From NCBI GenBank assembly GCA_963774265.1, contig CAVZDU010000005.1, forward strand, positions 352,001-416,000: 64,000 nucleotides of DNA, in the 5' to 3' direction. This document shows positions 13,712 to 39,612 of this stretch, piece by piece. The stretch's first letter is position 1. The number at the start of each line of letters is the position of its first letter. The notes below the pieces were generated by a model. The model did no database searches. It saw only the letters and a list, made by a program, of their open reading frames with translations, and was not told where the DNA came from. The translations under genes and the position numbers were made by a program. The stretch comes from an uncultured Chloroflexia bacterium. GTDB lineage: Bacteria > Chloroflexota > Anaerolineae > CG2-30-64-16.

Positions 13712-16700
13712 TCACGGGACGTTCCGCGCGATGAAGGGCAGATATTGTGACTGCGTGGCTTGTGTGAAGTAGCGCCCTCGATTGTCAGCGACCGCCACAT
13801 TCCCAGCGCCGTCCACTGCTTGTATGAAGTAGGCCAGGCCAAATTGAGCGGGCAGTGAACCTTCCCATATCTTCGGATCCTGGCGCGGCGCTAGCTCGAC
13901 GGCCTGCCATATGCCGTCACCAACCGTGTAGGTCGCCACGACCCGAACGACCCCGGAGAAGTCCGTTACATCCACCAGCACGGTTGTCGAAGCGTCGCCC
14001 TGCTGCTGATCGCGCACGGCCCAGATGCTGGGCGGGATGACATCGCCGGACGCGGAATAATAGACCATGTACGTCATTTCGTTGAACAGCCGCTCTACCC
14101 CCTGCGTCGCGCCGATCGCCTGGTATTGTGCAGGGATCAAGATCAATCGCTGGAGCAGGCCTTCGGGCGCGCGCACCGTATTGATCACGCCCCAGGATGA
14201 CGGTGTCCAGACCCTTGTGTCGAAGCCGGGATCGATCGCGGCGCCAACGCTGCGCGTGTCGTCGCTGGTCGGCTGCGTAAGCACAGGGGAGAACATGGCG
14301 TGGGTCTCGTAGCGCCCCCCCTCGAACAGTGTCCCGCGCGCCACCGTGCCCGCCAATGTGACACTGATCCCGGTGCGCGGCTGGATCGGCTGGCCCGGCG
14401 CCACCTGCGTTTCACCGCCGATGCTGTAGTAAGTCCGCGTTGTGTCGCCTGAAGATACCGTGTTGGGCGCATCATAGTTCGGCGCCACCAGCACCCGGCG
14501 GCAGATCAGACCCTCAGGGCAATTCTCGGCCTCGCTCGGTTGTCCGGCGGCGATATCGCCGCGACCGTGTCGCGCGATCGTGTCGGTCGTCGCGGCAGCC
14601 GCCGCGCCCGGCATCTGCACGCGATACATAGGCAGTCCATACAGGGTGGCTACGGCCAACACCTTTTCGTCGTAGGGTGTCAGCGAATGGACGCCGACCG
14701 AGTTGAAGTATTCGATCTCAGCCCCGCGTAACGCCTGGCCCACTGCGCCATCCGCCCGCAGGTGCTGGGCAAAGAGCGTCATCAATCGTTCCGAGTAACC
14801 GATGGCATTGGCGTCCCCGTAGCCATATCCCGTGTTGGCGAGGTATGTGACGCCCTTCCCCACGAGCGCCTGTGCGAAATCGAGCTGGTGGGCAGTGGCC
14901 TGCTCGTCGGGCACGGGGAGGCCGGAGTGGCAGCCCACGGAGAAGACCACGGTGCCAGAGAGTTGGCTGCTTGCGCGCACCTGCTCGGGATCCAGATCCC
15001 CCCCGGCGCCCTCGGCCGGGAGGGCGTGCCAGTGCTCGAAATGCGCGTTGATCGAGCTCAGGTCGTGACGGTCATCCAGCCATTTGGCCTTTAGCGCGGC
15101 CGCCTGCCAGGAGTCGTTGATCAGGCTGGTGTCGGTGTCCAGGCCGGCGCTCTGCATCGCGTCCGCCACAGCACGGGCCTGATCCTTGAGAAAGTCGTAG
15201 CCGACGGCCAGCCCGGTCTGCGCGGCGAGAACCGGCTGCTGCAGGAAGACATCGATCGCCGCGGCGATCTCTTCCGGGGTCTCCACGAGCCGGCCGATGG
15301 CGTAGTCGGGCAGGGTCAGCTCTCGCCCGCGCCAGGAGAACGGGGAGAACCCGGCGTAGTAGGTATCACTCAGGAAGTAGCGCCCCCGTAAGCTGGCGCC
15401 CAGGGGAGAGTCGTCAGCCAGGAAAGCGTGGTAGTCCTCTTCGTTGGCCACCGGCACCTCGTCGGGGATGCGACGGAAAGGCACCACTTCATCATCCCCG
15501 GCGATCACCAGGTTCTCCAGATCGGGATAGGCGGGGCGGAGCGCTGACAGCAGGGCCTTGATCGCGGCCGCGACCAGGTTGGCGTGCGCCGGATCGGACC
15601 GGCTACCATCCCACAGCCCGTAGACGGCCCTGACTGGGCCGTATGTGTTCAGGTCGATTACCTCGCCGGCAACCTGGGGATGCCGCGCCAGCTCACCGAG
15701 TTTATCCAGAAGCGCTTGTGTCCGCGCAACGCCGTAGCGTGCCTTGAGCCGCGTCCCGTTGGTCAGGATCAGCGTCTTGACCCCCCCGTGCGCGGCGTCC
15801 GGCGCCGCGAAGACCGGCGGCTGAAACCCGGGGTCCAACACCGCCTGGCCTTGTGTCACAGTGATCGCCAGGGTGTAGGCGTGCTGGGGATCGTTGGCGC
15901 CGTTGTGGCCGGCCACCAGCAGGTGATACCAGCCGCTCTGGTCCCAGACGTCCGTGCCGACCGTCTCCGATTGGACGCCGGTGCGGCAACTGGCGCGCAG
16001 CAAGGCGCCGGTGTCTGCCGCCAGGCCCACGCCGGCCACCTGCCCCAGGTACGTCGGTGAGCAGCTCTCGCCGCTCCCCAACTCGCCGGGGATGCCCTGC
16101 AGGTTCCCGATCCCCTGGAGGTTGCCGATGCCTTGCAGGTTCCCGACGCCACCGGGCGAGGCCCCCGGGGCTTGCTCCAGTCCGCCAAACAAGAACGCAT
16201 CGTAGTCCTGCGGCAGGGCGCTCAGTGTGGCGGTGATCGCCGCGTTGCGGGCACCCACCGGGATGCGGAACCACTGCGGATCTCGCTCGCCGGAGATGGT
16301 GAAGTGATGAACGCCGGGCACCAGAACGGGTGCGGTGAGCCAGGCGTCCTTCGCACCGGGGTCCGTGCGCCAGTTGAGCACGTTCACGTCGCCGCTGACC
16401 GCATCGCCCGCGCCGGCCGGGTTGCCCGGCGTATGTGGCCCCGTGGCGCTGCCCCACCAGGCGCCGGACGCGTCGATGGGACTGTCGCTGCCGTTTTCGA
16501 TCGCGAACCCGCCGTTGCCCGCCAGCGAGTTGCCCACAAGTGTCAGGGCGCCGCCGCGCGCCAGGATGCCGTCCTCCCGGCTGGCGGCGATGGTGCTGGA
16601 GATGACGTTGAGCGTGCCTCCATCCTGCGTGATGCCGTTTGCCGCGAACTCGACGCTGGTGTAGCTCAGCGAACCGGTGCTGCCGGCTGAGAATGAGAGC

Positions 16701-18787
16701 CCTTTCCAATCACCCGGCAGGGGCGCTGCGAAGCGCCCGGCGCTGGTGAAACGGACCGGGCCTGTTTCACTCCCAATGGCCACCAGCACTCCGGCGATCT
16801 GGGCGCCCCGGCCGAAGTCGAACTGTACGTTCACGCCCGGCGCCAGCGTCCACGTCCGGCCGGCCGGTACGGAGATGTCGTCGCTGACAACGCGGTAGGT
16901 GTCCAGGTCGCCCTGGGGTGTCCACGTCTCGTCGCGCTCACCGACTGTTCCGCCGGTCACCTGAACGACGTTCTCGCCGTTGGCCGAGAAACGGTTGTCC
17001 ACCAGGGGATTCCCCAGGGTCAGCCGAGCCGCCAGGCCGCCTTGATTAGAGATCGTGTTCTTTTGGAAGACGTTGCCGGTGCAATTCGACAGTAGCTCCA
17101 GCCCAACCGTGCGGTTGAACTCGATCAGGTTGCCGGCCGCGGCATCGGCCCCGCCAATCTGGTTGTTCGCGGCGTCATCCAGCCTGATGCCGGCGTTGTT
17201 CGGGACCGGCTTGGCGCCGGACGCGTCCGCCCCGATGCGATTGCCCGCGATCTGGTTGCCTGTTACGAGGAAATCCGATCCTTTGAGCACGATTCCTTCG
17301 CCTCGGTTGCCGCTAATCAGGTTGCCAGCCGTACCCGTGCCGACGATATTGTCGCTGGCGCCGCCGTGGAGCTTCACGCCCGCGAGGGCGTTCGGCACAG
17401 CATGGCTGCCCGTGACGTCGGTGCCGATATAGTTGCCCAGCACCTGGTTACCCGATGTGCCGGGCGATTCGAGGGCCAGGCCGTTGCTCCCGTTGCCGCT
17501 GATGACATTGCGTTCTGCTGGCGTTTGTCCGCCTATCACGTTGTCGGCACTGCCGAGGTGAATGAAGATCCCATCGTCGCCGTTTCCGAGAGCTGCCTGG
17601 CCCGCGGCATCGACGCCAATCCGGTTGCCCGCCACCACGTTGCCCGCCGCGCCTGGATTTTGGATCGAGATGCCGTTGCCCTGATTGCCGCTGATCAGAT
17701 TGGCCGCGCCGTAGCCCGTTCCGCCGATCATGTTCTGGCCCGCGCTGCCGAGGTGGATGCCATCCCCGCCGTTTGGCAACATGTCCGTGCCCGTGGCATT
17801 GGCCCCGATGATGTTGCCCGCGACCCGGTTGTGTTCCGCGCCGGTTTCCTGGATCCAGACGCCGCTCTGGATGTTACCGCTGATAAGATTGCCCGCGCCA
17901 GCCTCGCCGATCACGTTGTGGTCCGCATCGGAGACCAGGATTCCATGTCCCTGGTTGCCGAGCGAGGCGCGGCCCGTCGCATCGGCGCCGATGATGTTGT
18001 CCAGGACGCGATTGGCGGACGTGCCACTGATTTGGATGCGGACGCCGTCCTGCCGGTTGCCGCTGATCAGGTTGCCTTCCACCACGTTCTCATTAGCGCC
18101 GTCGCTGATAATCACGCCGTTTTGTCCGTTTGCCATGGCGCGCAGGCCTGCCAGGTCGGCGCCGATGATGTTGCCCAGCACGCGGTTAGCCGAGGTGCCG
18201 GTGTCTTGGATGAGGACTCCATCCTCCCGGTTGGCGCTGATGAGGTTGCCCTGTCCCAGGGGCGCCGCGCCGATAGTTCGCGATCCACCGATGACGGCAT
18301 TTCGCGCGCCGTCGGTCAACGCGATGCCATAACGCGGGAAGTTCAGGACTTGCAGCCCGCGAACTGTCACGCCCTCGGCGCCCTTGATGCTGAGGCCGGA
18401 GCTGTACTGCGCCCCGCTCCCCTCCAGGATCACGCCGGCGTTGCTGGCGTCGACTGTCAGTGACCCGGCCGTGATCACGGGAAGCCCGCTCTGCAAGGAG
18501 ATCGTCATGGGAGCTGAAGGAGGGAACACCGCGGGGTCGAACGTGATGACGTCGCCTGCCTGCGCATCGGTGAGCGCCGCGCGCAGCGTGCCCAACCCGC
18601 CGTCAGCCGGGCTGGTGACGACGACGCTGCGCGCGGCCGGCGCCAGGACCTGGCCCACGATAGACTGGGGCGGCGCAAAGCCTAGCGCCAGGAGGACGAC
18701 GAAGACGATGCGCAGGCAGGGGAGCCCTGCGTATCCGCTTTTCGTTCGTGAACGCTGCGCCACGGTGGTGGTTCTCCTGGCAGCCAT
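13712..18787 (-). CDS. Secreted parallel beta-helix repeat protein with a C25 (gingipain-like, clan CD) peptidase domain
   Basis: N-terminal hydrophobic signal; GNLISGN/GN.IG.D repeats; IAGDDEVVPF, SD.YYA, AIGRLVET, INAHF, SVGCHSG, LYGLP; ends QYLPFIARNVP. Confidence 0.8.
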   Translation of the reverse strand: MAARRTTTVAQRSRTKSGYAGLPCLRIVFVVLLALGFAPPQSIVGQVLAPAARSVVVTSPADGGLGTLRAALTDAQAGDVITFDPAVFPPSAPMTISLQSGLPVITAGSLTVDASNAGVILEGSGAQYSSGLSIKGAEGVTVRGLQVLNFPRYGIALTDGARNAVIGGSRTIGAAPLGQGNLISANREDGVLIQDTGTSANRVLGNIIGADLAGLRAMANGQNGVIISDGANENVVEGNLISGNRQDGVRIQISGTSANRVLDNIIGADATGRASLGNQGHGILVSDADHNVIGEAGAGNLISGNIQSGVWIQETGAEHNRVAGNIIGANATGTDMLPNGGDGIHLGSAGQNMIGGTGYGAANLISGNQGNGISIQNPGAAGNVVAGNRIGVDAAGQAALGNGDDGIFIHLGSADNVIGGQTPAERNVISGNGSNGLALESPGTSGNQVLGNYIGTDVTGSHAVPNALAGVKLHGGASDNIVGTGTAGNLISGNRGEGIVLKGSDFLVTGNQIAGNRIGADASGAKPVPNNAGIRLDDAANNQIGGADAAAGNLIEFNRTVGLELLSNCTGNVFQKNTISNQGGLAARLTLGNPLVDNRFSANGENVVQVTGGTVGERDETWTPQGDLDTYRVVSDDISVPAGRTWTLAPGVNVQFDFGRGAQIAGVLVAIGSETGPVRFTSAGRFAAPLPGDWKGLSFSAGSTGSLSYTSVEFAANGITQDGGTLNVISSTIAASREDGILARGGALTLVGNSLAGNGGFAIENGSDSPIDASGAWWGSATGPHTPGNPAGAGDAVSGDVNVLNWRTDPGAKDAWLTAPVLVPGVHHFTISGERDPQWFRIPVGARNAAITATLSALPQDYDAFLFGGLEQAPGASPGGVGNLQGIGNLQGIGNLQGIPGELGSGESCSPTYLGQVAGVGLAADTGALLRASCRTGVQSETVGTDVWDQSGWYHLLVAGHNGANDPQHAYTLAITVTQGQAVLDPGFQPPVFAAPDAAHGGVKTLILTNGTRLKARYGVARTQALLDKLGELARHPQVAGEVIDLNTYGPVRAVYGLWDGSRSDPAHANLVAAAIKALLSALRPAYPDLENLVIAGDDEVVPFRRIPDEVPVANEEDYHAFLADDSPLGASLRGRYFLSDTYYAGFSPFSWRGRELTLPDYAIGRLVETPEEIAAAIDVFLQQPVLAAQTGLAVGYDFLKDQARAVADAMQSAGLDTDTSLINDSWQAAALKAKWLDDRHDLSSINAHFEHWHALPAEGAGGDLDPEQVRASSQLSGTVVFSVGCHSGLPVPDEQATAHQLDFAQALVGKGVTYLANTGYGYGDANAIGYSERLMTLFAQHLRADGAVGQALRGAEIEYFNSVGVHSLTPYDEKVLAVATLYGLPMYRVQMPGAAAAATTDTIARHGRGDIAAGQPSEAENCPEGLICRRVLVAPNYDAPNTVSSGDTTRTYYSIGGETQVAPGQPIQPRTGISVTLAGTVARGTLFEGGRYETHAMFSPVLTQPTSDDTRSVGAAIDPGFDTRVWTPSSWGVINTVRAPEGLLQRLILIPAQYQAIGATQGVERLFNEMTYMVYYSASGDVIPPSIWAVRDQQQGDASTTVLVDVTDFSGVVRVVATYTVGDGIWQAVELAPRQDPKIWEGSLPAQFGLAYFIQAVDGAGNVAVADNRGRYFTQATQSQYLPFIARNVP
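16091..16144 (-). repeat. 3 x 18-bp in-frame tandem repeat encoding GNLQGI
   Basis: GNLQGIGNLQGIGNLQGI; copies differ at synonymous positions. Confidence 0.85.
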
Positions 18788-18809
18788 AGGTCCCTCCCAA
18801 AGCGTGCAT

Positions 18810-21800
18810 CTACCTCAGCACTATCGGCAGGTAGATCTGTCTCAGGTGCGTGTCGAGGCCGAACGAGAACTCGGACGTGGTTCCCTGCGGATCCGTGGCC
18901 GTGGCGTGCAAGAACGGCAGCGGCGGCGGGCTGCTCAGCGTCACCGTGAACGTGTTGGTCGCGTTCGCGGTGGCAGCCGCCAGGTAGACCGTACCCGCCG
19001 GCTGCGCGTCGAGGTTGGCGAAAACCTCCACCCGACAGCCCGCGCACGCGGCTCCGGTCAGCGTGCTGCTCTCGATCGTGTACTGGCCGAGGACTGGGGC
19101 GTTCACCGGCCCAATCGGTTGCGGTGTGTCCACGAAGTCAATCGGGAGCCCGGCGTTGTGGTGGATCGCGTTACGAGTGATCGTGTTGCGCAGGGTCTTC
19201 TCACCGCTGATGATCACGCCGGCCAGGTCGTTGAAGAGGATCGAGTTGTACGGCCCGAGGATGTTGCCCTGGCTCTCCCCGGTGAGTACGATGCCGCCAT
19301 TCAGGTTACCCAGATCGCCCGTGCCCGCTGCGCGGGCGCCGATGATATTGCCGGCCACCCGGTTGAGGGTTGTCCCGGTGTTCTGAATCCATACGCCAGC
19401 CCCGCTGTTGCCACTGATCAGGTTGCCCTCGCCCGCCGCCTCCCCGCCCACAACGTTGCCGCTGGCGGCAAAACAGATCGCCACCCCATCCGCCGCATTG
19501 GGTATGGCGTGAGCACCGCTAACATCCGTGCCGATGTAGTTGCCAAGCACGTTGTTCCCGGTCGTCCCCAGGTTTTTGATGTAAACGCCGGCCATCTCGT
19601 TCCCGCTGATGATGTTGCGCATACCGGCCTCTGCACCGCCTACCACGTTGTCAAATGCGCCGAAACCGATATGGACGCCGGCCTGCCCGTTACCGAGCGC
19701 TTTCGCGCCGGTTACGTCGGCGCCGATAGTGTTGCCCAGCACGCGGTTGCCGGTGACATCCTGGTTGATATTGACGCCCATCTCGGCGTTTCCGCTGATG
19801 AGGTTGCCATCCCCCGGCGTCTCCCCGCCGACCAGGTTGTCGCTGGCGCCCTGGGAAATGATCACCCCATCCTTCGCGTTGGCGAGCGCGGCCGTGCCGT
19901 TCACGTCTGTGCCGATGTAGTTGCCCTGCACCCGGTTGCCGGTCGTCCCCGGGTCTTGTAGCTGTACCCCATACAGACCGTTGCCGCTGATGACATTGCG
20001 CGCGCCTGCCGTGTTTCCACCGACCACGTTGCTGGTGGACCCATACATGATCAGAACACCGTTCAGTCCGTTGCCGAGCGATTGTGCGCCCGTGACATCG
20101 GCGCCGATGGTGTTGCCCTTAACTTCGTTGGCCGTGGTCCCGGCGCCCTGCATGAAAACCCCGTGCTTAGCATTGCCGCTGATAATGTTAGCCGCAGCAG
20201 GCGTTTCTCCGCCCACCACGTTTCCGCTGGGACCGTCGATAAGGGCAACGCCATCACCCTGGTTGCCGGGCGCGGTTGTGCCGTTCGCGTCTGTGCCGAC
20301 GTAATTGCCCAGCACCTGGTTGCCGGTCGTCCCTGGATCCTGCAGCCACACGCCGCCGTTGATCAAGTTGCGCGTGCCAGGAGCTTCCCCACCGACCACG
20401 TTGTTGCTGGCCGTGAAGCCGATGAACACGCCTGTCTCGCCGTTGGTCAGGGAATGCGTGCCCGTTGCGTCCAGGCCGATAGTGTTGCCGACGATCCGGT
20501 TGTGATCGGTGCCGGCTTGCTGGAGAGACACCCCGTGCCCGCCGTTGCCACTGATAACGTTGGCCGCACCCGGCGTCTCTCCGCCGATGATGGTGTCGTG
20601 CGCGCCGAGGGCCAGCACGATGCCCACGTCCCCATTGCCTAAGCTGCCCGTGCCCGTACCATCGGTGCCAATGTAGTTGCCCAATATCCGGTTGCCGGCT
20701 GTGTCTGCGTCCTGGAGGTAGATGCCGGCCTCATCAGTCTCATCGTTCCCATCGCTATTTCCGCTGATCAAATTGCGTGCACCCGGTGTATCGCCGCCCA
20801 CCACATTGTTGCTGGCGCCGGCCATGATGACGATGCCGTCTCCGGAGTTTGCCACGGCCTTCGTGCCTGTCGCGTCCGCGCCGACGGTGTTGCCCAGAAT
20901 CCGATTGTCGTCGGAACCCAAACCCTGTATGGTGATGCCCCGGTCGCCGTTGCCGCTGATGACGTTGCCCGCGCCCGCTGCGTTCCCACCGATGGAGTTG
21001 CCGCCCGCGCCACCGAGGATAGTGATGCCGTCGTTGCCGTTGCTTAGCGCACTGATACCAGTCACATCAACGCCGATCAGGTTACCCAACACCTGGTTTC
21101 CCGTGGTCCCCGCGTTTTGGATCCACACGCCGGAACCTCCGTTGCCGCTGATCAGGTTGCCCGCGCCCGCGGACGTCCCGCCGATGGTATTGCCGTGAGC
21201 GCCAAAACCAATCAGGAGGCCAGCCTCTTCGTTGCCTAGGGCGACGATCCCTGAGGCGGCCGTGCCGATGAAGTTGCCCGTCACCCGGTTGCCCGTCGTA
21301 TCTGCGTCCTTGATGAGCACACCGGACAGGCCGTTGCCGCTGATTACATTCCGCAACGCGACCGTTGCGCCGCCCACCACGTTATCGTGCGCGCCGAAGC
21401 CGATAAGGACGCCCAGTTGGCCATTGCCCAGATCGGCCGCACCGTTCACTTCCGTGCCGATGATGTTCCCCACGACCCGGTTGCCCGAGCAGTCCTCGTT
21501 GAGGTTGACGCCGATCCGGCCGTTGCCGCTGATCAGGTTGCCCGTGCCCGGCTCCTCCCCGCCCACCAGGTTGTCATCGGCCGCCAGCAGGACCACCCCA
21601 TCGACGCTGTTTGGGATGGCGCTTGTGCCGTTCAGGTCTGTCCCGATAAAGTTGCCCTGGATGCGATTGTTGATGACGCCCGGCCCCTCCAGCCAGACGC
21701 CCGTATCCCCGTTCCCGCTCACCAGGTTGCCCTGACCCAGGGGCCCCGTGCCGATCCCTCGATCGCCGCCGATGACGCAATCGTGCGCGCCGTCGAGCAG

Positions 21801-22439
21801 CTCGATGCCGTCGCTGGGGAAACCTTCAATCTGTAGCCCGCGAATGGTCACGCTGCCGGCTCCCGACACGACCAGGCCCGCGCCCGCGGACAGGCCGCTT
21901 CCGTCCAGCACCGCGCCGGCATTGCTGCCATCGATGGTCAGGCCGTTTACGGTGATGGCGGGCAGGACCGACGCCAGCTTGATCGCGGCGGGGCTTGCCG
22001 GCGGAAAGACGCCGGCGTCGAAGAGGATGGTCCCGTTCACGGCCGCCTGCAAGAGGCACGCGCGGAGGCTGCCCGAACCGCTGTCAGCCCGGGTCGTGAC
22101 CGTGCAGGTGGCGAGCGTGCCGATGATGGCCTGGCGGTCGCTAAGGCCGGCCAACCGCGCTTTCGACTCCGCGCGGCCGTGTTCGGGCAGCACGGCTCCG
22201 GCGGTGTCAGCGATCGCAGCAGCCTTCGGAGACCGAAGCTCCGCCTTCACCCGACGGCGTCCGGCAGGGGCATACGGTGCAAGCGCCTTCGGCTCGTCGT
22301 AGAGGGCGCCGCCGGCCAGGTGCGCGTCCAGGTGCGCGGCACTTTCCCCGTCCAGGTGCCCGGCACCTTCAAGGTGCCGGGCACCTCCTCCTCCTGCAAG
22401 AGCGGCGCAGATGACTATGAAAATGATCCGTCTGAACAT
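18810..22439 (-). CDS. Secreted parallel beta-helix repeat protein (paralogous to the N-half of 13712..18787)
   Basis: Signal-like MFRRIIFIVICAALAG; VTTRADSGSGSLRAC; more than 12 repeats of about 60 aa containing GN(L/V)ISGN; C-terminal ATATDPQGTTSEFS Ig-like domain; ends QIYLPIVLR. Confidence 0.85.
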   Translation of the reverse strand: MFRRIIFIVICAALAGGGGARHLEGAGHLDGESAAHLDAHLAGGALYDEPKALAPYAPAGRRRVKAELRSPKAAAIADTAGAVLPEHGRAESKARLAGLSDRQAIIGTLATCTVTTRADSGSGSLRACLLQAAVNGTILFDAGVFPPASPAAIKLASVLPAITVNGLTIDGSNAGAVLDGSGLSAGAGLVVSGAGSVTIRGLQIEGFPSDGIELLDGAHDCVIGGDRGIGTGPLGQGNLVSGNGDTGVWLEGPGVINNRIQGNFIGTDLNGTSAIPNSVDGVVLLAADDNLVGGEEPGTGNLISGNGRIGVNLNEDCSGNRVVGNIIGTEVNGAADLGNGQLGVLIGFGAHDNVVGGATVALRNVISGNGLSGVLIKDADTTGNRVTGNFIGTAASGIVALGNEEAGLLIGFGAHGNTIGGTSAGAGNLISGNGGSGVWIQNAGTTGNQVLGNLIGVDVTGISALSNGNDGITILGGAGGNSIGGNAAGAGNVISGNGDRGITIQGLGSDDNRILGNTVGADATGTKAVANSGDGIVIMAGASNNVVGGDTPGARNLISGNSDGNDETDEAGIYLQDADTAGNRILGNYIGTDGTGTGSLGNGDVGIVLALGAHDTIIGGETPGAANVISGNGGHGVSLQQAGTDHNRIVGNTIGLDATGTHSLTNGETGVFIGFTASNNVVGGEAPGTRNLINGGVWLQDPGTTGNQVLGNYVGTDANGTTAPGNQGDGVALIDGPSGNVVGGETPAAANIISGNAKHGVFMQGAGTTANEVKGNTIGADVTGAQSLGNGLNGVLIMYGSTSNVVGGNTAGARNVISGNGLYGVQLQDPGTTGNRVQGNYIGTDVNGTAALANAKDGVIISQGASDNLVGGETPGDGNLISGNAEMGVNINQDVTGNRVLGNTIGADVTGAKALGNGQAGVHIGFGAFDNVVGGAEAGMRNIISGNEMAGVYIKNLGTTGNNVLGNYIGTDVSGAHAIPNAADGVAICFAASGNVVGGEAAGEGNLISGNSGAGVWIQNTGTTLNRVAGNIIGARAAGTGDLGNLNGGIVLTGESQGNILGPYNSILFNDLAGVIISGEKTLRNTITRNAIHHNAGLPIDFVDTPQPIGPVNAPVLGQYTIESSTLTGAACAGCRVEVFANLDAQPAGTVYLAAATANATNTFTVTLSSPPPLPFLHATATDPQGTTSEFSFGLDTHLRQIYLPIVLR
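22354..22386. repeat. 33-bp palindromic element inside a CDS
   Basis: AGGTGCCCGGCACCTT-C-AAGGTGCCGGGCACCT; related copies at 22459-22492 (partial), 25783-25815, 43038-43052 (half), 57201-57232. Confidence 0.85.
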
Positions 22440-27016: not shown

Positions 27017-27035
27017 GGGAAACCCCTTTCGACCA

Positions 27036-31116: not shown

Positions 31117-32658
31117 ATGACGGCGCAAACCAAGCTGTGCACGGTGATACTCCTCCTGGTCCTGGCGGCCCCGGCATTGGGCGGCTGCCGGTCGGCTCCT
31201 CCCGCAGCTACCAGCACGCCCACCGCCGAGACAGAGCGCGCCGTCTTACCTGCCGCGCCGGGCAGCGAGCCCGCGCCCCCGGTCGCGCAGCCTCCGGCCC
31301 TGACCGCGGCCCCCCCGGCATCGGAACAACCCCCTGCCCAGGAGGCCTATCCGGGCGTGGTGGCGTCAGGCAACGCACCGGTCCTGGGGGGCGCTGCCGA
31401 GCCGCTGGCAATCTCGCCGGTCGACGCCGAGGCCCAAGCCGTGCGCGTGGCGGAAGTGATCGAGGTGCTCAGCGTGTGGAAGGACAGCTGCGGGCAGCTG
31501 CTGGTGCTCGAAAATCCCAATCCCGATCTCGCCATCCAGAACATCCAATACCGGCTCACCGGCTACGACAGCGGCGGGGCCGTCCTGGAAACGGATGAAT
31601 CCAGGATCGACGTGCTCTATCCCGGCGAGCGCCGCAAGATTTACCTGGGCATCCGCAGCCAGGAAGGCGCGCCGGCCGCCCGGCTGGAGTTCACGATCGT
31701 CGGGCAAGGCGAACCCGGGCGGACGAGCCTGGCCGCCGACAGCCTGAGCATCGAGCGCGTGCAGTACTGGCCTGAGGCGGGCGCCGTGACCGGCATTGCC
31801 ACGAACCGCTCGGACTTCCTGATGAGGATGCCCGTGCTGACCGCTTTGCTCTACGATCAACAGGACCGGTTGATCGGCTTCGGCGAGATGCCGTCGCTCC
31901 ACTTCGTGCCGCCCCGGGGACAGGCGGGCGTATCCGTGCGCGTCCCCTACAATCTCGAAGCTGCCCGCGTGGAGCTGCTGGCCGTGCCGAAGGGCAGCTG
32001 GCTCACCGGTCCCGTCCGAGACGATCGCCCGACGCTCCGGGTGGGCGAGCTGGTGATCGGCCGCGATGCCACCGGCGACGACCTGGCCAATGCGGTCTTT
32101 CGCGTGGCCAATCCCAATGCCGACCGCGGGACCGGCAGCCTGCCGTACCAGGTCACCGTGTATGACGCCCAGGACTTCGTGTTGGGCACCCAGACGGGCA
32201 ACACCCCGATCGTGTTCCCGGGCGAGGAGGTGGCCGTGATCGTCTCCCGGTTCGCCATTCCTCCCGGGAGCTCGATCGCTCGCGGCGAGGTGCAGATCAG
32301 CCCGCTGACGCCGGAAACTGATCTGCTCGACTTCCGCGGCCTGGGGATCGAAGGAAATCCCTTCGGAGTCACCGGCGTTGCGTACGCGGTGCAGCGCTCG
32401 TCTCCGCACGTGACCTGCGTTCTCACGAACAGCTGGAAGAAGCCGATGACGCAGCCGGTGGTAGTCGTCGCAATCGCCTACGATGCCGGTGGGCGGATGG
32501 TCGGTTTTGGCGCTAATCCCGTGTATAACGTGCCGGCCAACGCGCAGGTCGACGTCGACATCTGGATGACGATGGCGGTTGATTACGATGGCGTTCCCGC
32601 GCGCATAGAGACCTGGGCCTACGTGAGTCATCTGTCTGACTTCAGCATTGGGCCATGA
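31117..32658 (+). CDS. Lipoprotein with four FxLYD-type domains (paralog of the upstream gene)
   Basis: Lipobox LGGC, Pro/Ala linker, ENPNP motif, LTGYD, ALLYD, VTVYD, AIAYD. Confidence 0.8.
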   Translation: MTAQTKLCTVILLLVLAAPALGGCRSAPPAATSTPTAETERAVLPAAPGSEPAPPVAQPPALTAAPPASEQPPAQEAYPGVVASGNAPVLGGAAEPLAISPVDAEAQAVRVAEVIEVLSVWKDSCGQLLVLENPNPDLAIQNIQYRLTGYDSGGAVLETDESRIDVLYPGERRKIYLGIRSQEGAPAARLEFTIVGQGEPGRTSLAADSLSIERVQYWPEAGAVTGIATNRSDFLMRMPVLTALLYDQQDRLIGFGEMPSLHFVPPRGQAGVSVRVPYNLEAARVELLAVPKGSWLTGPVRDDRPTLRVGELVIGRDATGDDLANAVFRVANPNADRGTGSLPYQVTVYDAQDFVLGTQTGNTPIVFPGEEVAVIVSRFAIPPGSSIARGEVQISPLTPETDLLDFRGLGIEGNPFGVTGVAYAVQRSSPHVTCVLTNSWKKPMTQPVVVVAIAYDAGGRMVGFGANPVYNVPANAQVDVDIWMTMAVDYDGVPARIETWAYVSHLSDFSIGP

Positions 32659-32748: not shown

Positions 32749-32777
32749 CGTAACGCGACGCTCTCCTCGCGCTCTTT
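32749..32777 (+). promoter_or_regulatory. Putative ECF promoter, copy 3 (upstream of the HEAT/DUF4190 protein)
   Basis: CGTAAC-N17-CTCTTT, 66 bp upstream of ATG 32843. Confidence 0.65.
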
Positions 32778-32842: not shown

Positions 32843-35800
32843 ATGTCGCAGAAGATCGATGCTTTGAAGGCCGCAGGCGACGTCGCCGGCTTGAGCAGGC
32901 TCCTGGACAGCCGGAAGACCGAAGAAATGGGCGAGGCAGCCGAGGCGTTGGTGAGCCTGGGCGCCGCTGCCGTGCCGGCGCTGCTTTCCGCAGCAAAATC
33001 CCCAAAGTCCTCCGTCCGCATGGCGGCGGCGCTGGCGCTGGACTCGATCGCCCCACAAATGTATGCCGGCGCTCTCGACGAAGTAATCGCGGCCTTAGTA
33101 GGGCTGCTGGGGGATCGTGATGCGATCGTCGGCGTCGTGGCGAGCGACTCGCTTGCCAAGCTGGGGCCAGCAGCGCTGTCCCAGCTGACGGCTGTCCTGC
33201 AGGGATCCGGCAGCTCCGCGGAGCGAGCCGGGGCGGCGGAGGTGCTGGGCAAGATCGGAGACCCGGCTGCCGTCGCTGCCCTCCGGGCGGCTGCGGCTGA
33301 GGGGAGTCCGCTGGTGCGCCGTGCCTGCGAAGAAGCGCTGGTCAGGCTTGCAGAGCCAGGCCCGGCCGAGAATGCTGATGGCCTGGTCGCCGCACCTGCC
33401 GCACCCGGCGCCCCGACAGGCACGAACGACGACCTGGCCGCCGGACCGGAGGCCGAGGGTTCCCTGCCGTCCGCGTCAGCCGGTGGACCTGGACCCGTGC
33501 AAAACCTCTCGATTATCGTCGCCCACGGCAAAGTCGAGCGCGACGGCGAGCGGTGGGTCTTCCGAACCGGCGGCTTCTCCGAACGCACCATCTCCATGAC
33601 TCCACAAGCGTTGCGTTTTGCATACCTGTTCCTGCCCCAGCAGTTCAAGTGGCGGGCCATCCTGCCGTCGCAGACGCGCTACCGCTACCTGAACCTGGAC
33701 TCCTTGTCGGATGACGAGTATGCCGAGTTGGAGTCGGAGCTCGCTCGGCAATACCAAACCCTGGACGGGTTCTTCAAGTTCGTGCTGGCCGACCTCGAGG
33801 GCCGGGTGGTAATAGCCTCCTGGAAGGCCTTCCGCGAGGGCGGGATAGACCCGATCGAGGCGTTGGGCCGCACGCGCGCCGAGCGGCAGGGAAGCCGCGA
33901 TCGCTGGCTCAAGACGAACCCCAGCGTTGTGCCGCCGGGGAGCCGGGGTGCCCTGGCGAGCGCCATCAGCATGAATGCGGCCGGCGCTAGCTCCGGATCG
34001 CGTTTCATCCCTTGGGAATCGGTGGAGCATATCGAACTCGCTGAGGCTTATTCCTTACTCCTGTCGACTGTATGTTTTGTCAAATTTATCGCAAAGAAGG
34101 ATAGCCGGTTGAGAGGAATCAGGACAGCCATATCGCCCAAGCACGCGGAAGCCTGCTTCGCCGAGACGGACTTCTGGCGCTCCTTGGGCCGCACCCAGGT
34201 CTGGGCCACTGCGCCGGTGCAGGCAGCGACTGCCAACGTCCCGGCGCGAGGGGGATCACAGCCCGGCGCGCCCCCTGCCCCACCGGAGACGAGCCGCATG
34301 GCGATCGCCAGCCTCGCGACCGGGATCGCCACCTGGATCATCCTGCCCCTCGTTGGCGCCATCGCAGCTATCGTCACCGGCCACCTGGCGAAGAAGCAGA
34401 TCCGCCAGAATCCCAACCGGCTGACCGGTGCGGGCATAGCCACCGCCGGCATGACACTGGGATATGCGCAGCTCGGCATCGGGTTGCTGATCGCCATCGT
34501 GACGGGCATCGCAGCCATCGCCAGCCGGACGGCATCGCCGATGGCAACCCTGTCGCCCAGGGCAACTGCGGCGCCTGTGCGGCTGGCAGCCACGGCTGTT
34601 GCGGCCCCCACGAACGCAGGGGCCGCGGCCGCGGTCCGCTGCAGCGTGCAGGACGGCAAATGGACAGGGACGCTTGGCTTCAGCCTCTCCGGCTGCGTCA
34701 TCACCGATCCCATGCTCACCCTGATCACCAGCAAGGGCGATCAGGTTCAAGTCTACTTCTACTACCTGAACGACGAGATTCGGATCGAGAACGGCCGTCT
34801 CTCATATCGGAAGGCCCGCGATGGCGGGCAGGTAACGATCGAGGGCGCGTTCACCTCCCCGACAGAGGCCTCCGGAACCTGGGTCCTGACCAAGGGAACA
34901 AAGATCGCCGGGGGCACCGCGACTGTCACGCAGGACACCACCGGCAGCTGGACCGCTTCGCTCGGCCCGCCCCAGGCAGCCACGGCAGCGGAGGTGAGCC
35001 GTGCGTCGACCGCAGCGCCGCTCGTGGCGCCGACCAGGACACCGACCCGGACGCCCACCAGGATCCCGACCGCCACCGCCACGCCGCGGCCGTCGCCGAC
35101 CGCTAGCCCGACCACCGCTCCAACCTTGGAGGCGGCGGCCCCGGTCTCGCTGGGCGAGGCGTTGGACAAGAAGTTGGCCGACATCCAGATCCTGGGCATG
35201 GGCGGCGCATCGGGCGCGAGCATCCAGATCATTGCCAACGCGACCGGCAGCAGGTCTGTCTCGATCGAGATCGCGCCCGGCACGGTCCTGCGCAGCTCCG
35301 TCCCCGGCGAACAGGACATGGTGGTGCGGCGGCTCCTCGGCCTGCGCCAGGGCGAGCAGAGATATTCTCCCACTGAGGTCATCTTCCTCCCCGGCCTCGC
35401 CGCAGGCCCGCAGTCCTACGTCGTGGATGCCTACTGCCTCAACTTCCACAAGGGCAATCCCAGCGCGACCACGTCGATGGCCGTGGACGCCGGCAGCCTG
35501 GTGTCTCCGGCCGTTGCTGCAGTCCTGGCCGCCGCTGCCCGGGTGCCCGGAGCGGAGCAGGATATCGATGCCATCCAGGCCGCGGTCTGGACGGTAACCG
35601 ACCATCCGACCTGGCAGGAGATGGCCGATCGCGGGTATTCGCCGGAACGCCAGATGGTTGCCGCACTGCTGCAGTCCGCGCGCCTCGACCAGGAGTGTGC
35701 GCAGTTGTTCGGGCAAGCTTGCACGGTGCCGGACTGCTTGCAGAGCAACCCGACCGGGCTGGGCGGGACGCGTAGCGGACCCTGCGTCAGCAGGGTCTGG

Positions 35801-37336
35801 CAGCCCGACGCCGCGACGCCTGCGCCGGCGCCAATGCCCACGACGGCCGTCGTTGCTACGACCACGGTTCTCGATACGCAAGTCCTGAAGCTCTTCGCAC
35901 CCGGCCCGGACACCGCCGGCATCGCGGTCACCAGGGACGCCATCTGGGTGGCGGACGGCGAACAAAAGCGCATCCACCACCTGGACCGCAGCGGCGCGCC
36001 CGTGGGTTCGTTCCAGGTCAAAGCGCAGGGTGAATTCCGCGGCCTGGCCTGGGACGGCGAGGCGCTGCGGCTGCTGGTGCACGACTACCAGTTGGGCAGC
36101 CAGGTGATCCGCCTCGATGTGCAGGGCAAGGTCCTTTCCACCTTCACGGTGCCGGCCGACCTCCGCGATCTCACGTGGAACGCGGTCGACGAGTCCTTCT
36201 GGACCATCGTCTCAGGGTCAGATGGCTTCCTGCTGGAGCTCGGCGCCGGTGGCGAGCTGCGGCAGACGCTCAACGTGCCGGTGTTCGGCAGCATGGAGAG
36301 CCTGGCCTGGGCGCCGGACGGCCTCTGGATGCTAAGCGGGTTCGGGAAATGGCATCGATTCAGCTTCGATGGGGAATACCTCGCGTCAGCTGAGCTGCCG
36401 ATGGAGGTATTCGCCAAAGATCCGGCGTTGGCCTGGGATGGGGACGGTTTTCTCTGGGTCAGCGTGGCGGACACACGCGAGATCTATCAGTTCGCTTTAC
36501 GCCAGGCGGCAGTCGATGTAGAATTGCCATCGGAACTCCGCTCAAGCTCGGAGGCGGGTGTGGAGGGCCAATTGCCCCTGCCGCGGCCGTCTTTCCGGGC
36601 CTTGCCGGGCAGCACCAACGCCATCCTCCACGTGGCCAATGGTCTCTCTGCGCCGCTCATCGTGGCGCTGGACAGCACCAGCGGCGGCGACGTACACCAG
36701 TCGGCCGCCGCAGCACCGGGCGAGACCTGGTCGGCCGCGATCGCCAAAGGCGGCGCCTTCACCCTTTTCGTCGGCGCCAACGCAGCGGAGCCGGTCGCCT
36801 ACTACGGCAAAATCTTGCTTCTCGCCGGCTATGAGTACACCTGGGTCATCGGAGATGCCGTGACGATCACCCCACCGCCCGCGGCCACCGCCACGCCGTC
36901 CGTCCCGCTCGCCTCGGCCACGGCCGTCCCCCCGACCGCGGCGCCGACTGCCCGGGGTGCGGCTCCGCCGACCGCGGCTCCGACCCGCGCGGCCACCCAG
37001 CCTAAACCGGCGACTGCGCCGGCAGCTGCCTGCGCGGACTCGCGGGCCCGGATCACCTACCCGGCCAATGGCGCGGCCATTTCCGGAGTGACCAATTTCC
37101 TCGGCACAGCCAACCTGCCGGACCAGGCCTATTACAAGTTCGAGTACAAGCCTGCCAGCTCCCCGACCTGGCAGTACCTTACCCAGGTTGACGGCAAGAC
37201 GGTGATCAACGACAAGCTGATGGACTTCTTTACCACGACCATCGCGCCGGGCGTATACGACTTCCGACTGATTGCGGTGGACCGATCAGGCAACTATCCG
37301 TCGCCGTGCGAGATTCGGCTGACGGTGCAGCGGTGA
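32843..37336 (+). CDS. Large mosaic membrane protein: HEAT repeats, DUF4190-like TM hairpin, thioester-domain-like region, beta-propeller, C-terminal Ig-like domain
   Basis: HEAT AAEALVSLG..AVPAL / AAEVLGKIGDP; MAIASLA.GI..GAI.AIVTGH.AKKQI..G.G.A.AG; AYCLN and IQAAVW; GLAWDG repeats; Pro/Thr linkers; strong RBS GGAGG. Confidence 0.8.
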   Translation: MSQKIDALKAAGDVAGLSRLLDSRKTEEMGEAAEALVSLGAAAVPALLSAAKSPKSSVRMAAALALDSIAPQMYAGALDEVIAALVGLLGDRDAIVGVVASDSLAKLGPAALSQLTAVLQGSGSSAERAGAAEVLGKIGDPAAVAALRAAAAEGSPLVRRACEEALVRLAEPGPAENADGLVAAPAAPGAPTGTNDDLAAGPEAEGSLPSASAGGPGPVQNLSIIVAHGKVERDGERWVFRTGGFSERTISMTPQALRFAYLFLPQQFKWRAILPSQTRYRYLNLDSLSDDEYAELESELARQYQTLDGFFKFVLADLEGRVVIASWKAFREGGIDPIEALGRTRAERQGSRDRWLKTNPSVVPPGSRGALASAISMNAAGASSGSRFIPWESVEHIELAEAYSLLLSTVCFVKFIAKKDSRLRGIRTAISPKHAEACFAETDFWRSLGRTQVWATAPVQAATANVPARGGSQPGAPPAPPETSRMAIASLATGIATWIILPLVGAIAAIVTGHLAKKQIRQNPNRLTGAGIATAGMTLGYAQLGIGLLIAIVTGIAAIASRTASPMATLSPRATAAPVRLAATAVAAPTNAGAAAAVRCSVQDGKWTGTLGFSLSGCVITDPMLTLITSKGDQVQVYFYYLNDEIRIENGRLSYRKARDGGQVTIEGAFTSPTEASGTWVLTKGTKIAGGTATVTQDTTGSWTASLGPPQAATAAEVSRASTAAPLVAPTRTPTRTPTRIPTATATPRPSPTASPTTAPTLEAAAPVSLGEALDKKLADIQILGMGGASGASIQIIANATGSRSVSIEIAPGTVLRSSVPGEQDMVVRRLLGLRQGEQRYSPTEVIFLPGLAAGPQSYVVDAYCLNFHKGNPSATTSMAVDAGSLVSPAVAAVLAAAARVPGAEQDIDAIQAAVWTVTDHPTWQEMADRGYSPERQMVAALLQSARLDQECAQLFGQACTVPDCLQSNPTGLGGTRSGPCVSRVWQPDAATPAPAPMPTTAVVATTTVLDTQVLKLFAPGPDTAGIAVTRDAIWVADGEQKRIHHLDRSGAPVGSFQVKAQGEFRGLAWDGEALRLLVHDYQLGSQVIRLDVQGKVLSTFTVPADLRDLTWNAVDESFWTIVSGSDGFLLELGAGGELRQTLNVPVFGSMESLAWAPDGLWMLSGFGKWHRFSFDGEYLASAELPMEVFAKDPALAWDGDGFLWVSVADTREIYQFALRQAAVDVELPSELRSSSEAGVEGQLPLPRPSFRALPGSTNAILHVANGLSAPLIVALDSTSGGDVHQSAAAAPGETWSAAIAKGGAFTLFVGANAAEPVAYYGKILLLAGYEYTWVIGDAVTITPPPAATATPSVPLASATAVPPTAAPTARGAAPPTAAPTRAATQPKPATAPAAACADSRARITYPANGAAISGVTNFLGTANLPDQAYYKFEYKPASSPTWQYLTQVDGKTVINDKLMDFFTTTIAPGVYDFRLIAVDRSGNYPSPCEIRLTVQR

Positions 37337-37392
37337 GTTGGCTGGAGTGCAACCGTCCTTACAAGAGGGACAACGCAGAAAGGGGTGCTCTT

Positions 37393-39612
37393 ATGTGTCA
37401 GGAAGATCACATCATCCGCAGCAGAAATCGGTCAGCCAAAGGCGCCTTTGCGTTTCGCCCGACGGCCGCACGCATGAGACGCGCTGGCTTCGTACGGACA
37501 TGCCTGCTGCTGACGCTGCTCGCCGCCTGTCTGCCGGCATCGCTGGCAGGAGCGCAAGCCCTCGAAGGAAACGCGGCCGAAACGGCAGCTTCGCCAGAGG
37601 CCGCCATCTGGAGTCTCTATCCGATCTATGGCGGCAACATGGAGGCACTGGTCAGCGATCCCAACAACTCCCAGGTGTTCTACGCCGGCACCGAAAGCGC
37701 AGGTGTGTTCAAGGCCACCGATGCAGGCTCGACCTGGCAGCCGGCGCGCAGCGGCCTTCCCCCCACTGCAAAGGTGATCAGCCTGGCGGTGGACCCGCAA
37801 AATTCGAACTCCCTGTACGCGGGCACGGACGAGGTGGGCATCATCTGGAAATCGCAGGACGCGGGCGCAACGTGGACGAACATCACCCATAACATGGAGA
37901 CTGGCACGTTCGCCGACGCGTATTTGCCGTACAACATCGTCGTCGATCCGAACAACAGCAACACCGTTTACGTGGGCCTGGGAGGCTACGCCGGGCAGAT
38001 CTACAAGACGACCGACGGCGGCGCCATCTGGTGGGTGATGGACAACGGCATCCCCCGGGACGATGACACGTACACCGACGAGATCACGGCGTTAGCCATC
38101 GATCCCACTCAGTCCTCCGTATTGTACGCGGGGGTGCGCAAGGACGGCGTTTACAAGACCATCGACGGCGGTGCAAACTGGACGCCCCTGAACGAGGGCG
38201 TGCCATTTTACAGAGATGAATACAAAGAGGTGACCGCGCTTGCGGTCGACCACCTGCACGACAACCGGCCCGCAGGCATCATTGACGGCAAGTACTATGT
38301 CTTCGGGACCGACAACAAGTGGTCCCTGGTCAGCACGGGCTACGGGATCAACAGCAGCTGGGAGCACGCGCATCTGGTCTTCCATCCCACCGACACCAAC
38401 ATCATCTACAGTGCGGGAGATCAGCTGACCAAGAGCAGCGATGGCGGGATAACCTGGGTGTCAATCTCCGGTGATTCTTACAGCTGGGGGCATCCCGACA
38501 TGGCCTTTCACCGGTCGGCTCCGAACGCGCTCCTGGCCGCCAACCAGGTGACCTATGGCGACAGAGCGGCCGGCGTGCGGAAGTCGCTGAACGGCGGCGT
38601 CAACTGGATCGATGCCTCGTCGGGCATTGCCGCCCACCCGATCCAGGGCGTCGCAATTGATCCACAGAACGCGAACAACCTTTACGCCGGACGCTCGGAG
38701 GGGTATTCGGGCGTCTGGCGGAGCACCAATCGCGGCGTCACCTGGGACTACACCGCGACCGACGGCCAGATCCAGGATATTGTCGTGGATCCGCTCGATT
38801 CCATGAAGGTCTATGCCGCCGCCGATTATTACTTCATGGTTTCCAACGACCAGGGTGTCAGCTTCACGGTCATTGAAGATGTCAACGCAACCTGCCTGGC
38901 CGTCACGCCTGGCGCCTCGAACCCCGTGTATGCAGGCGGCCGCGATGGTGTATACAAAAGCATCGACGGCGGCCTGACATGGGTGCCTAAGGACAGCACC
39001 TTCCCAACCAACAGTAGTGGCGACCCAGCGCAGGTCATGAGCCTGGCCGTGGACCCCAACAACACGGCCATCGTCTGGGCGGGGACTGCCGTGGAAGGCC
39101 TGGTGCGGTCGCCGGACGGCGGTGAAAGCTGGCAGTATAAGGGCTTCCTCGACATGCCTGACGTCGACGCGGTGGCCGTCAGGCCCGGAGACAGCAATAC
39201 GATCCTGGTGGGAACCGGAGACTACCGCGGGTCGGGCGGCAGGACCGGCGGGATCTATAAGTCCACCGACGGCGGGCAGACGTGGCAGCCGAAGCAGCTC
39301 GGTGCGAGCACCATCACGGACTTTGTATTCGATCCCAGGAATCCCGACTGGGTCTACGCCGGTACGGGCTACGTGCCGAGTTACGGACCCGGGGGCACGG
39401 AGGGGATCGGGGTGCTGCGCTCCGTCGACGGCGGCGAGCATTGGTCCGTCTACAGCTCCGGGCTGTTCAACCAGGTGGTTTTCTCGCTGGCAATCAGCTC
39501 TGAGGAATCGCCTTTGCTCCTGGCCGGCACGATGGGATCGGGGTTGTACGGCACACAACCCTCACAGCCTCCGCCTATGCGGCGGTTCTACGTGCCGCTG
39601 ATTGCGAAGTAG
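37393..39612 (+). CDS. Secreted Asp-box/BNR repeat (sialidase/VPS10-like) beta-propeller protein
   Basis: Repeated (K/R)S/TxDGGxTW Asp-boxes; signal-like MRRAGFVRTCLLLTLLAAC (alternative start 37474); ends RFYVPLIAK. Confidence 0.85.
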   Translation: MCQEDHIIRSRNRSAKGAFAFRPTAARMRRAGFVRTCLLLTLLAACLPASLAGAQALEGNAAETAASPEAAIWSLYPIYGGNMEALVSDPNNSQVFYAGTESAGVFKATDAGSTWQPARSGLPPTAKVISLAVDPQNSNSLYAGTDEVGIIWKSQDAGATWTNITHNMETGTFADAYLPYNIVVDPNNSNTVYVGLGGYAGQIYKTTDGGAIWWVMDNGIPRDDDTYTDEITALAIDPTQSSVLYAGVRKDGVYKTIDGGANWTPLNEGVPFYRDEYKEVTALAVDHLHDNRPAGIIDGKYYVFGTDNKWSLVSTGYGINSSWEHAHLVFHPTDTNIIYSAGDQLTKSSDGGITWVSISGDSYSWGHPDMAFHRSAPNALLAANQVTYGDRAAGVRKSLNGGVNWIDASSGIAAHPIQGVAIDPQNANNLYAGRSEGYSGVWRSTNRGVTWDYTATDGQIQDIVVDPLDSMKVYAAADYYFMVSNDQGVSFTVIEDVNATCLAVTPGASNPVYAGGRDGVYKSIDGGLTWVPKDSTFPTNSSGDPAQVMSLAVDPNNTAIVWAGTAVEGLVRSPDGGESWQYKGFLDMPDVDAVAVRPGDSNTILVGTGDYRGSGGRTGGIYKSTDGGQTWQPKQLGASTITDFVFDPRNPDWVYAGTGYVPSYGPGGTEGIGVLRSVDGGEHWSVYSSGLFNQVVFSLAISSEESPLLLAGTMGSGLYGTQPSQPPPMRRFYVPLIAK

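Follow-up and report, generated by a model that had tools for sequence, protein, structure and literature searches.

A candidate CHAT protease-gated ECF sigma module with an NLR-like sensor in an uncultured Chloroflexota genome

Can a CHAT protease carried by an NLR-like sensor control a sigma factor of the extracytoplasmic function (ECF) type by cutting its anti-sigma, with no CRISPR system involved? The question is raised by a locus of an uncultured Chloroflexia bacterium, contained in a stretch of 64,000 nucleotides (nt) (contig CAVZDU010000005.1, positions 352,001-416,000; hereafter the window) of an assembly of 5.5 Mb in 10 contigs and 84% complete. A first-pass annotation of this DNA had proposed such a route, and we followed it up on genes called from the listing of open reading frames (ORFs) and from scans of the Pfam and NCBIfam families. 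The minus strand carries, in this order, genes for an ECF-type sigma, a candidate anti-sigma and a protein with CHAT, AAA_16 and TPR domains, followed by two paralogous beta-helix genes; the successive junctions are an overlap, another overlap, 66 nt and 22 nt. We suggest that the CHAT domain, once activated by its sensor, cuts an anti-sigma docked on it, so that the sigma can act at three promoters of the locus, a reading of which we are about half persuaded. The features at the core of the module are listed below, with lengths in amino acids (aa).

28840-28868, minus strand: predicted promoter of sigma-70 type before the sigma gene, TTGGCA-17-TATCAT, a 10 of 12 match and the best of the region
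27899-28774, minus strand: ECF-type sigma, ORF of 291 aa (TIGR02937, Sigma70_r4)
27964-27991, minus strand: predicted ECF-type promoter of the anti-sigma gene, TGTAAC-N16-TCTCTTT, one mismatch
27036-27926, minus strand: candidate anti-sigma of 296 aa with two zinc-binding anti-sigma (ZAS) motifs and a CarboxypepD_reg-like C-terminus
22506-27049, minus strand: CHAT/cyclase-homology/AAA_16/TPR protein, one gene in broken frames (Pfam, NCBIfam and three-frame reading)

The linkage of these three genes was investigated first in the close family, in which the sigmas are 43-79% and the anti-sigmas 40-63% identical. The CHAT gene is the next gene after the anti-sigma in all five contigs long enough to show it, namely the window and the orthologous loci L033, L019 (from genome G055), L034 and L035, the last two being near-identical. 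Three further contigs (L036, L037 and L038) end before the next gene and were left out of this count. L033 has the same CHAT-AAA_16-TPR form as the window, co-directional with the anti-sigma gene, and L019, L034 and L035 have a convergent TPR-CHAT protein of 714-781 aa without the NTPase.

In 401 genomes sampled from the phylum, a search with the anti-sigma profile gave matches in 32 (E<=1e-8). We fetched 20 of the 35 places lying outside the genome of the window, 19 of them the best by E-value and one (G096:C3) picked for its long frame. Using our own hidden Markov model together with Pfam, a CHAT gene was found within 10 kb on either side in 11 of these 20 loci. When the loci are divided by the length of the ZAS frame, a split made after seeing the data, CHAT accompanies 11 of the 13 frames of at least 241 aa and none of the 7 of at most 142 aa. 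Three architectures occur in the 11 loci: CHAT-cyclase-AAA_16-TPR-SBP_bac_5 (L076), CHAT-BNR propeller (L077 and L078) and TPR-CHAT (the other eight), CHAT being the sole constant part. Sensor modules seem to be freely exchanged on one protease, as judged from these domain orders. Conserved co-occurrence of the three genes had been named in the first-pass annotation as a check on its proposal, and it is found at both levels of relatedness.

Two further observations bear on this association. A metagenome protein of 983 aa (P0220) has zf-HC2, TPR and CHAT in one chain according to its Pfam list, and by this composition it is a natural anti-sigma/protease fusion outside Myxococcota. In the genome of the window, one of the seven CHAT genes adjoins an anti-sigma of this type, which is the only such anti-sigma there. 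Among the fetched loci, the L076 protein (G075:C449, ORF 4995-10016, minus strand) is a CHAT/Guanylate_cyc/AAA_16/TPR protein that ends in SBP_bac_5, and L077 and L078 have a BNR/Sortilin propeller joined to CHAT.

The CHAT frame of the window (26150-27049) matches PF12770 with 74.2 bits (cut-off 24), and the CHAT of L033 reaches 131.6 bits. The dyad is composed of the His in HYSGHA and the Cys in FLNGCETA, both aligned in all 11 CHAT domains compared (the window and 10 relatives). A search of this domain with phmmer against PDB sequences returned nothing meaningful. The following frame (22506-25991, 1161 aa) contains AAA_16 (88.4 bits), TPR_12 (123 bits) and TPR_MalT matches. The window gene has Walker A as GEAGSGKS and Walker B as LDDLHWAD, and the G-x-x-G-x-G-K and D-D columns are invariant across 39 homologues. 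By these matches the protein is a STAND NTPase of NLR-like layout, joining an effector, a P-loop NTPase and C-terminal repeats. It had been described from the outset as a single gene with these three parts, which is what L033 contains in one intact ORF of 1513 aa.

The same description included a cyclase domain, which we do not retain. Between CHAT and AAA_16, the window protein matches only the cyclase/ATPase part of TIGR03903, and no PF00211 match was found in it at E<=0.01; PF00211 is found in L076 (E 6e-8) and is listed for 9 of 60 homologues. At the position that we take to be the first metal-binding Asp of the class III cyclase motif, both the window protein and the family consensus have Arg. 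The region is apparently a degenerate cyclase-homology domain, outside the class III cyclases proper. It also contains a low-complexity stretch rich in His, Leu and Gly, which is similar to the 24-nt repeat region of the first beta-helix gene.

In the assembly this gene has to be read in three frames, since the CHAT frame runs into a second one for about 40 residues and then into that of AAA_16. A DNA alignment with the intact 1513-aa ORF of L033 places two +1 insertions near 26116 and 25993, 123 nt apart. Two such insertions are what a true pseudogene would present, in a decayed locus whose module no longer signals in this organism. The gene is otherwise open, and its identity to L033 is 76% in the CHAT part and 70% in the remainder, including the 1161-aa frame. 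Two other genes of this assembly are also broken, rpoC into two frames (G000:C7:4204-8551) and secA into four (G000:C1:715721-718117), which indicates that consensus indel errors are common and makes an assembly error the likelier cause of the broken frame. We consider the decay of the locus very improbable. Frequent single-base indel errors may also explain the completeness value of this genome. A search of sequencing runs for the stretch found two metagenome runs, each with only 4-5% of its words, and no RNA run was listed.

The 296-aa protein is considered a candidate anti-sigma on the grounds of motif, modelled fold and position. Its zinc motifs are C6..H33xxxC37xxC40 and C63xxC66..H93xxxC97xxC100, the second one invariant in the family alignment, and after them come a conserved EPPxYPxPxLSF, a linker that varies and a C-terminal domain that is again conserved. 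Three orthologues exceed the cut-off of zf-HC2 (PF13490): L034 with 32.4 bits, L077 with 30.9 and L033 with 24.1. The AlphaFold2 model (mean predicted local distance difference test score, pLDDT, of 77.9) has two three-helix bundles (6-55 and 63-114), a disordered linker (118-138) and an all-beta domain (141-295). Foldseek with the whole model gave only beta-sandwich matches to the C-terminal domain and was uninformative on the helical part.

We also considered whether this protein could be a transmembrane anti-sigma, which was rejected. The most hydrophobic stretch is only borderline (Kyte-Doolittle 1.0-1.9), has conserved Arg and Asp inside and is modelled as beta strands, with no transmembrane helix in the model, and the protein is thus taken as soluble. 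With its two aligned HxxxCxxC motifs, it agrees with the initial description of a double-ZAS anti-sigma without a membrane segment. Members of this family were found only in metagenomes and metagenome-assembled genomes (MAGs). A word-indexed search with the anti-sigma retrieved 25 clusters, and an exhaustive one 114 representatives at E<=1e-30, many of which are unrelated giant proteins that have the beta domain alone in common; at E<=0.001, the profile matches 3744 proteins. In the genome contigs the profile also hit 13 loci, each match being partial and weak (E 2e-7 to 3e-4), and these were not used.

A direct contact between the two proteins was predicted, as had been suggested for checking the proposal, using residues 1-400 of the L033 CHAT protein (39-sequence alignment) and the L033 anti-sigma (30-sequence alignment). 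The complex scores 0.78, and the highest of its three controls 0.00; of 157 solved complexes 116 attain this mark, as do 2 of 215 mismatched pairs. At least 92% of the contacts recur between the runs, and the pLDDT of the partner is at least 70. The predicted contact joins CHAT residues 176-207 to residues 278-308 of the anti-sigma, in its C-terminal beta domain, where the CHAT strand 193-202, located just before the catalytic His, pairs with strands of the beta domain, among them 289-295 (L033 numbering). In the window proteins the contact residues are identical or close to it. According to the model, docking of this kind would not tie up the disordered linker, which could still reach the dyad.

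The predicted docking would suit an adaptor equally well, which leads to a different reading: CHAT would act on the sigma itself by removing its conserved N-terminal extension, in this view an inhibitory pro-sequence, and the sigma would be brought to the protease by the ZAS protein. The sigma does have an N-terminal extension of about 70-90 aa, and the close orthologues all align from residue 1-21. Direct proteolytic control without an anti-sigma has also been proposed in the literature for the sigma group ECF54 (PMC8999054). On the other hand, the ZAS motifs and the place downstream of the sigma gene suit a classical inhibitor, and in the analogous Csx30 and CalpT it is the inhibitor that is cut (PMC10028731; bioRxiv 10.1101/2024.05.08.593097). 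Cleavage of the sigma is in our opinion quite improbable, and we keep the cutting of the anti-sigma as the preferred reading.

The sigma itself is assigned to the ECF (group 4) sigma-70 family by its matches to TIGR02937 (sigma70-ECF, 57.7 bits, cut-off 42.9) and Sigma70_r4 (36.3 bits, cut-off 24.1); Sigma70_r2, with 17.7 bits, stays under its cut-off of 24. Its identity to the orthologues is 79% in L033, 64% in L037, 54-55% in L019, L034 and L035 and 43% in L036. There are 127 sigma-related clusters, and all the named ones are from Chloroflexota; most of them are about 245 aa long, compared with 291 aa for the window ORF. The TTGGCA-17-TATCAT element upstream of the sigma gene was also recognized by eye in L033, L034, L035, L036, L019 and L037. 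The sigma gene is thus apparently driven by a conserved sigma-70-type promoter and not by the ECF-type motif, which suggests constitutive synthesis of the sigma, post-translational control and a sigma-dependent resupply of anti-sigma and protease.

The ECF-type motif stands before other genes of the locus, on both strands. Besides the copy before the anti-sigma gene, the features concerned, together with the beta-helix genes, are the following.

28895-28922, plus strand: predicted ECF-type promoter, GTAAC-N16-GCTCTTT, exact match, divergent from the sigma gene
29071-31095 and 31117-32658, plus strand: FxLYD lipoprotein genes 1 and 2 (NF038353, lipobox-like N-termini)
32750-32777, plus strand: predicted ECF-type promoter, GTAAC-N16-GCTCTTT, exact match, before the HEAT/DUF4190 gene
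32843-37336, plus strand: HEAT/DUF4190 protein (Pfam and NCBIfam)
37306-39612, plus strand: BNR/Asp-box propeller (Pfam and NCBIfam)
18810-22439, minus strand: beta-helix repeat protein with a signal-like N-terminus (paralogy to the next gene)
13712-18787, minus strand: beta-helix protein with a weak Peptidase_C25-like stretch (PF13229, PF01364)

The gene list and the gene order given by the first-pass annotation are correct on both strands, according to the ORFs and the family scans, and so is its observation of one promoter-like motif before three units. Allowing up to one mismatch, GTAAC-N16-GCTCTTT has three matches in the window, against 0.08 expected, and none of 100 shuffles reaches three. 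Only two exact copies exist in the whole genome, both at this locus (before the FxLYD and the HEAT/DUF4190 units), and the refined pattern TGTAAY-N17-CTCTTW also has two genome matches, both at the locus, with one for the control pattern. Copies with one mismatch show no excess elsewhere in the genome (14 in all, versus 23 for the reversed-pattern control). The motif lies 149 nt from FxLYD gene 1, 66 nt from the HEAT/DUF4190 gene and 38 nt from the ATG of the anti-sigma, in this last case within the 3' end of the sigma ORF. In all eight orthologous loci examined, TGTAAY-N16-xCTCTTW is found at the same place before the anti-sigma, and further copies are divergent from the sigma gene in L033, L036 and L019 or placed before downstream genes in L034, L035 and L038.

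The window and all eight orthologous loci have a predicted promoter of this type directly before the anti-sigma/CHAT operon, as would also be expected if the CHAT-STAND-TPR protein were an output of the sigma, for example a defence or cell-death effector, and the ZAS protein answered another cue, such as thiol oxidation, in the manner of the RsrA type. Both zinc motifs follow HxxxCxxC, a redox-capable type. Conflict systems commonly include STAND proteins that carry protease effectors, and the window also has nSTAND1-WD40, Eco57I-like methylase and PIN-PLD-SNF2 genes. This explanation is opposed by the PADLOC results, in which no defence family was found in the window apart from a weak BovA match and a TPR match. 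Moreover, the linkage outlasts the complete swap of the sensor architecture, with CHAT alone constant; the contact predicted with CHAT is specific and involves the extra domain of the anti-sigma; and a ZAS-TPR-CHAT fusion exists. We regard a mere output as unlikely, though deserving attention, and return to the CHAT protein as the regulator of the anti-sigma.

With regard to the targets, the sigma had been supposed to induce surface genes and its own regulators. By the motif that precedes them, the FxLYD, HEAT/DUF4190 and anti-sigma units would be such targets; the beta-helix genes and the sigma gene are not preceded by it. The two beta-helix genes are paralogues with 45% identity over 551 aa. 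Pfam Beta_helix (PF13229, E 1.3e-19) matches only the second one, in which a weak Peptidase_C25 match is also found (PF01364, E 3.8e-7). The first one starts 66 nt past the TPR stop, and neither an ECF-type motif nor a terminator-like site was found before these genes. A promoter of their own was rejected, as none was found upstream, and any control by the sigma would have to reach them as read-through of transcription begun at the promoter of the anti-sigma. The first beta-helix gene has a 24-nt tandem repeat of 1.9 copies at its 5' end (window 22325-22370).

The FxLYD proteins match NF038353 with E 1e-17 and 1.6e-13, and their genes are absent from the orthologous locus L033. There, a HEAT/DUF4190 gene is divergent from the sigma gene, its product being 70% identical over 982 aa, and the BNR gene next to it is represented by the first 66 residues only (47%), followed by the contig end. 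From the neighbourhoods compared, the regulon appears local and variable among relatives. Other genes were observed facing the ECF-type promoter in the orthologous loci: two Ser/Thr kinases in L019 (11973-16719), a propeller, a PPC protein and an M4 peptidase in L036 (2-6263), and a gene of no assigned family followed by an M23 peptidase in L035 (6766-7761).

Taken together, these results are consistent with the following circuit. The ECF-type sigma would be made from its housekeeping-type promoter and held by the soluble tandem-ZAS anti-sigma, whose C-terminal beta domain would dock on the CHAT of the CHAT/cyclase-homology/AAA_16/TPR sensor. Upon activation of the sensor, the CHAT dyad would cut the docked anti-sigma, likely at the conserved disordered linker, and the freed sigma would act on the three local TGTAAC-N16-GCTCTTT promoters. 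The first of them would re-express anti-sigma and protease as a feedback, with possible read-through into the two beta-helix genes; the second would serve the two FxLYD lipoproteins, and the third the HEAT/DUF4190 membrane protein and the BNR propeller. Support comes directly from the genes and motifs, from a linkage conserved among relatives, from catalytic and Walker residues that are intact and from the predicted docking. From these we infer the binding of the sigma, the cleavage and its site, the signal and the use of the promoters by this sigma. As for the interpretation of the first-pass annotation as a whole, the gene order, the double ZAS, the NLR-like gene, the motif, the linkage and the predicted contact speak for it; the cyclase had to be given up, no copy of the motif precedes the beta-helix genes, and the idea has precedents.

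Several points weigh against this circuit. The CHAT gene is frame-broken in the assembly. The window anti-sigma stays under the curated cut-offs (21 bits with the RsrA model, for a cut-off of 62.5), and its comparison with the solved anti-sigma domains of RslA, RsiW and ChrR is not significant (E 0.06-0.5). With this query, the module was not found in any of the seven genomes of the same genus, where only one weak match appeared (E 2.5e-5), and we consider the module accessory for this reason. The promoter of the anti-sigma makes the CHAT gene a sigma target too, so the neighbourhood alone could reflect co-regulation. The calibration of the complex score holds only roughly here since our own alignments were used, and a passing score supports binding but falls short of showing it. 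Finally, the predicted contact is away from the active site, which indicates docking and not substrate engagement.

The neighbourhood of the module within the window has other genes worth describing. On the plus strand, positions 8451-13622 encode a protein of 1723 aa in which an nSTAND1 NTPase is combined with numerous WD40 repeats and, at the C-terminus, a PnrA/Bmp-like domain for solute binding; its gene is convergent with the beta-helix genes and would be the second NLR-like sensor of this neighbourhood. A second ECF sigma is found at 44006-44758, near an integrase-core fragment (44861-45688), and an Eco57I/MmeI-like methylase at 53384-56896. A PIN-PLD-SNF2 protein extends over two overlapping frames (57588-59723 and 59374-61353), and this overlap may be another frameshift.

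How far is such a module new? The first-pass annotation knew of no characterised example with this architecture, but the idea has precedents in the ECF54 context and in DdvA. No paper on a Chloroflexi ECF sigma with a CHAT domain was found, and the literature on CHAT cleavage, anti-sigma and STAND consisted of CRISPR papers only, the coverage being incomplete in both searches.

The first precedent is ECF54, a group that is reportedly credited also to Huang et al. (2015). In the account of Casas-Pastor et al. 2021 (PMC7826278), ECF54 is confined to Actinobacteria (100%), has a CarboxypepD_reg protein always at +1, is accompanied by a subtilase, with CHAT and TPR proteins close by, and lacks a putative anti-sigma; a review lists it under proteolytic control (PMC8999054). 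The locus shares with it the CarboxypepD_reg protein at +1, the nearby CHAT/TPR protein and a promoter of similar style (GTATCAG / CTCC in ECF54, TGTAAC-N16-GCTCTTT here). It differs in belonging to Chloroflexota, in the two ZAS motifs of the +1 protein, in the lack of a subtilase domain among the scanned ORFs of the window and in the fusion of CHAT to a STAND NTPase, a kinship judged by the description of ECF54 and not by its sequence. The ECF54 promoter pattern GTATCAG/CTCC has no match in the window. The phylum of an actinobacterial MAG (L023/G458) was sampled with 401 genomes, and the 9 that matched at E<=1e-10 did so through the ZAS part of the profile only.

In Myxococcus xanthus, DdvA has a zinc-binding anti-sigma domain fused to TPR-CHAT with an intact His-Cys dyad, and a CHAT-dependent release of the ECF sigma DdvS was proposed (PMC11506125). 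The coupling of a zinc anti-sigma domain to a TPR-CHAT module with intact dyad is common to both cases. However, DdvA is a single transmembrane protein with periplasmic TPR-CHAT and dependence on RseP, whereas here the proteins are separate and soluble and a STAND NTPase is added. The DdvS regulon consists of CBASS and CRISPR genes, and the one predicted here from the motif of envelope proteins.

The remaining precedents are linked to CRISPR. In the type III-E craspase, Cas7-11-Csx29, once allosterically activated, cuts Csx30 and frees CASP-sigma, which acts on promoters of its own locus (PMC10028731). Our candidate resembles it in the cytoplasmic TPR-CHAT protease, the soluble sigma inhibitor and the action of the sigma on local promoters, cleavage being only proposed here. 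Craspase is activated by RNA binding that is guided by CRISPR RNA, unlike the STAND NTPase and TPR of the window, where no CRISPR array was found and no Cas domain among the scanned ORFs, in agreement with the original statement that no CRISPR is involved. Besides, Csx30 is not described as a zinc-finger anti-sigma in the available part of that source (PMC10028731), in contrast with the two ZAS motifs found here. In CalpL-CalpT-CalpS (bioRxiv 10.1101/2024.05.08.593097) and in the SAVED-CHAT/PCaspase cascade (bioRxiv 10.1101/2023.06.23.546230), a ligand-activated protease cuts an anti-sigma and releases an ECF-like sigma. Protease-gated release of an ECF-like sigma, as proposed here, is the point of resemblance; CalpL is of the Lon type and has a SAVED domain through which cyclic oligoadenylate activates it, and both systems are described as CRISPR type III accessories without a STAND or TPR sensor. 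The locus would therefore represent a CRISPR-free and STAND-coupled form of protease-gated sigma control, whose principle already has precedents.

This module would be a compact system for experiments, with four proteins and three promoters, and for mutagenesis it offers two direct handles, the docking domain predicted here and the linker, which is disordered and conserved. It may also provide a candidate anti-sigma for ECF groups described in the literature as having none. More broadly, and with somewhat less than even confidence, we suggest that CHAT proteases with swappable cytoplasmic sensors (STAND-TPR, TPR, BNR propeller or solute-binding domain) form a widespread, CRISPR-independent "caspase-to-sigma" family in Chloroflexota. 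In such a family the tandem-ZAS anti-sigma would be presented to the protease by a dedicated docking domain of its own, the NLR-like switch would yield transcription instead of cell death, and the same logic could supply the "missing" anti-sigma of ECF54-like systems. So far, protease-released ECF-like sigmas have been characterised only as CRISPR accessories (craspase and CalpL) or were proposed for the membrane anti-sigma DdvA; the present locus, together with its relatives, suggests that such logic is used on its own, with a STAND/NLR-like sensor, in ordinary gene regulation.

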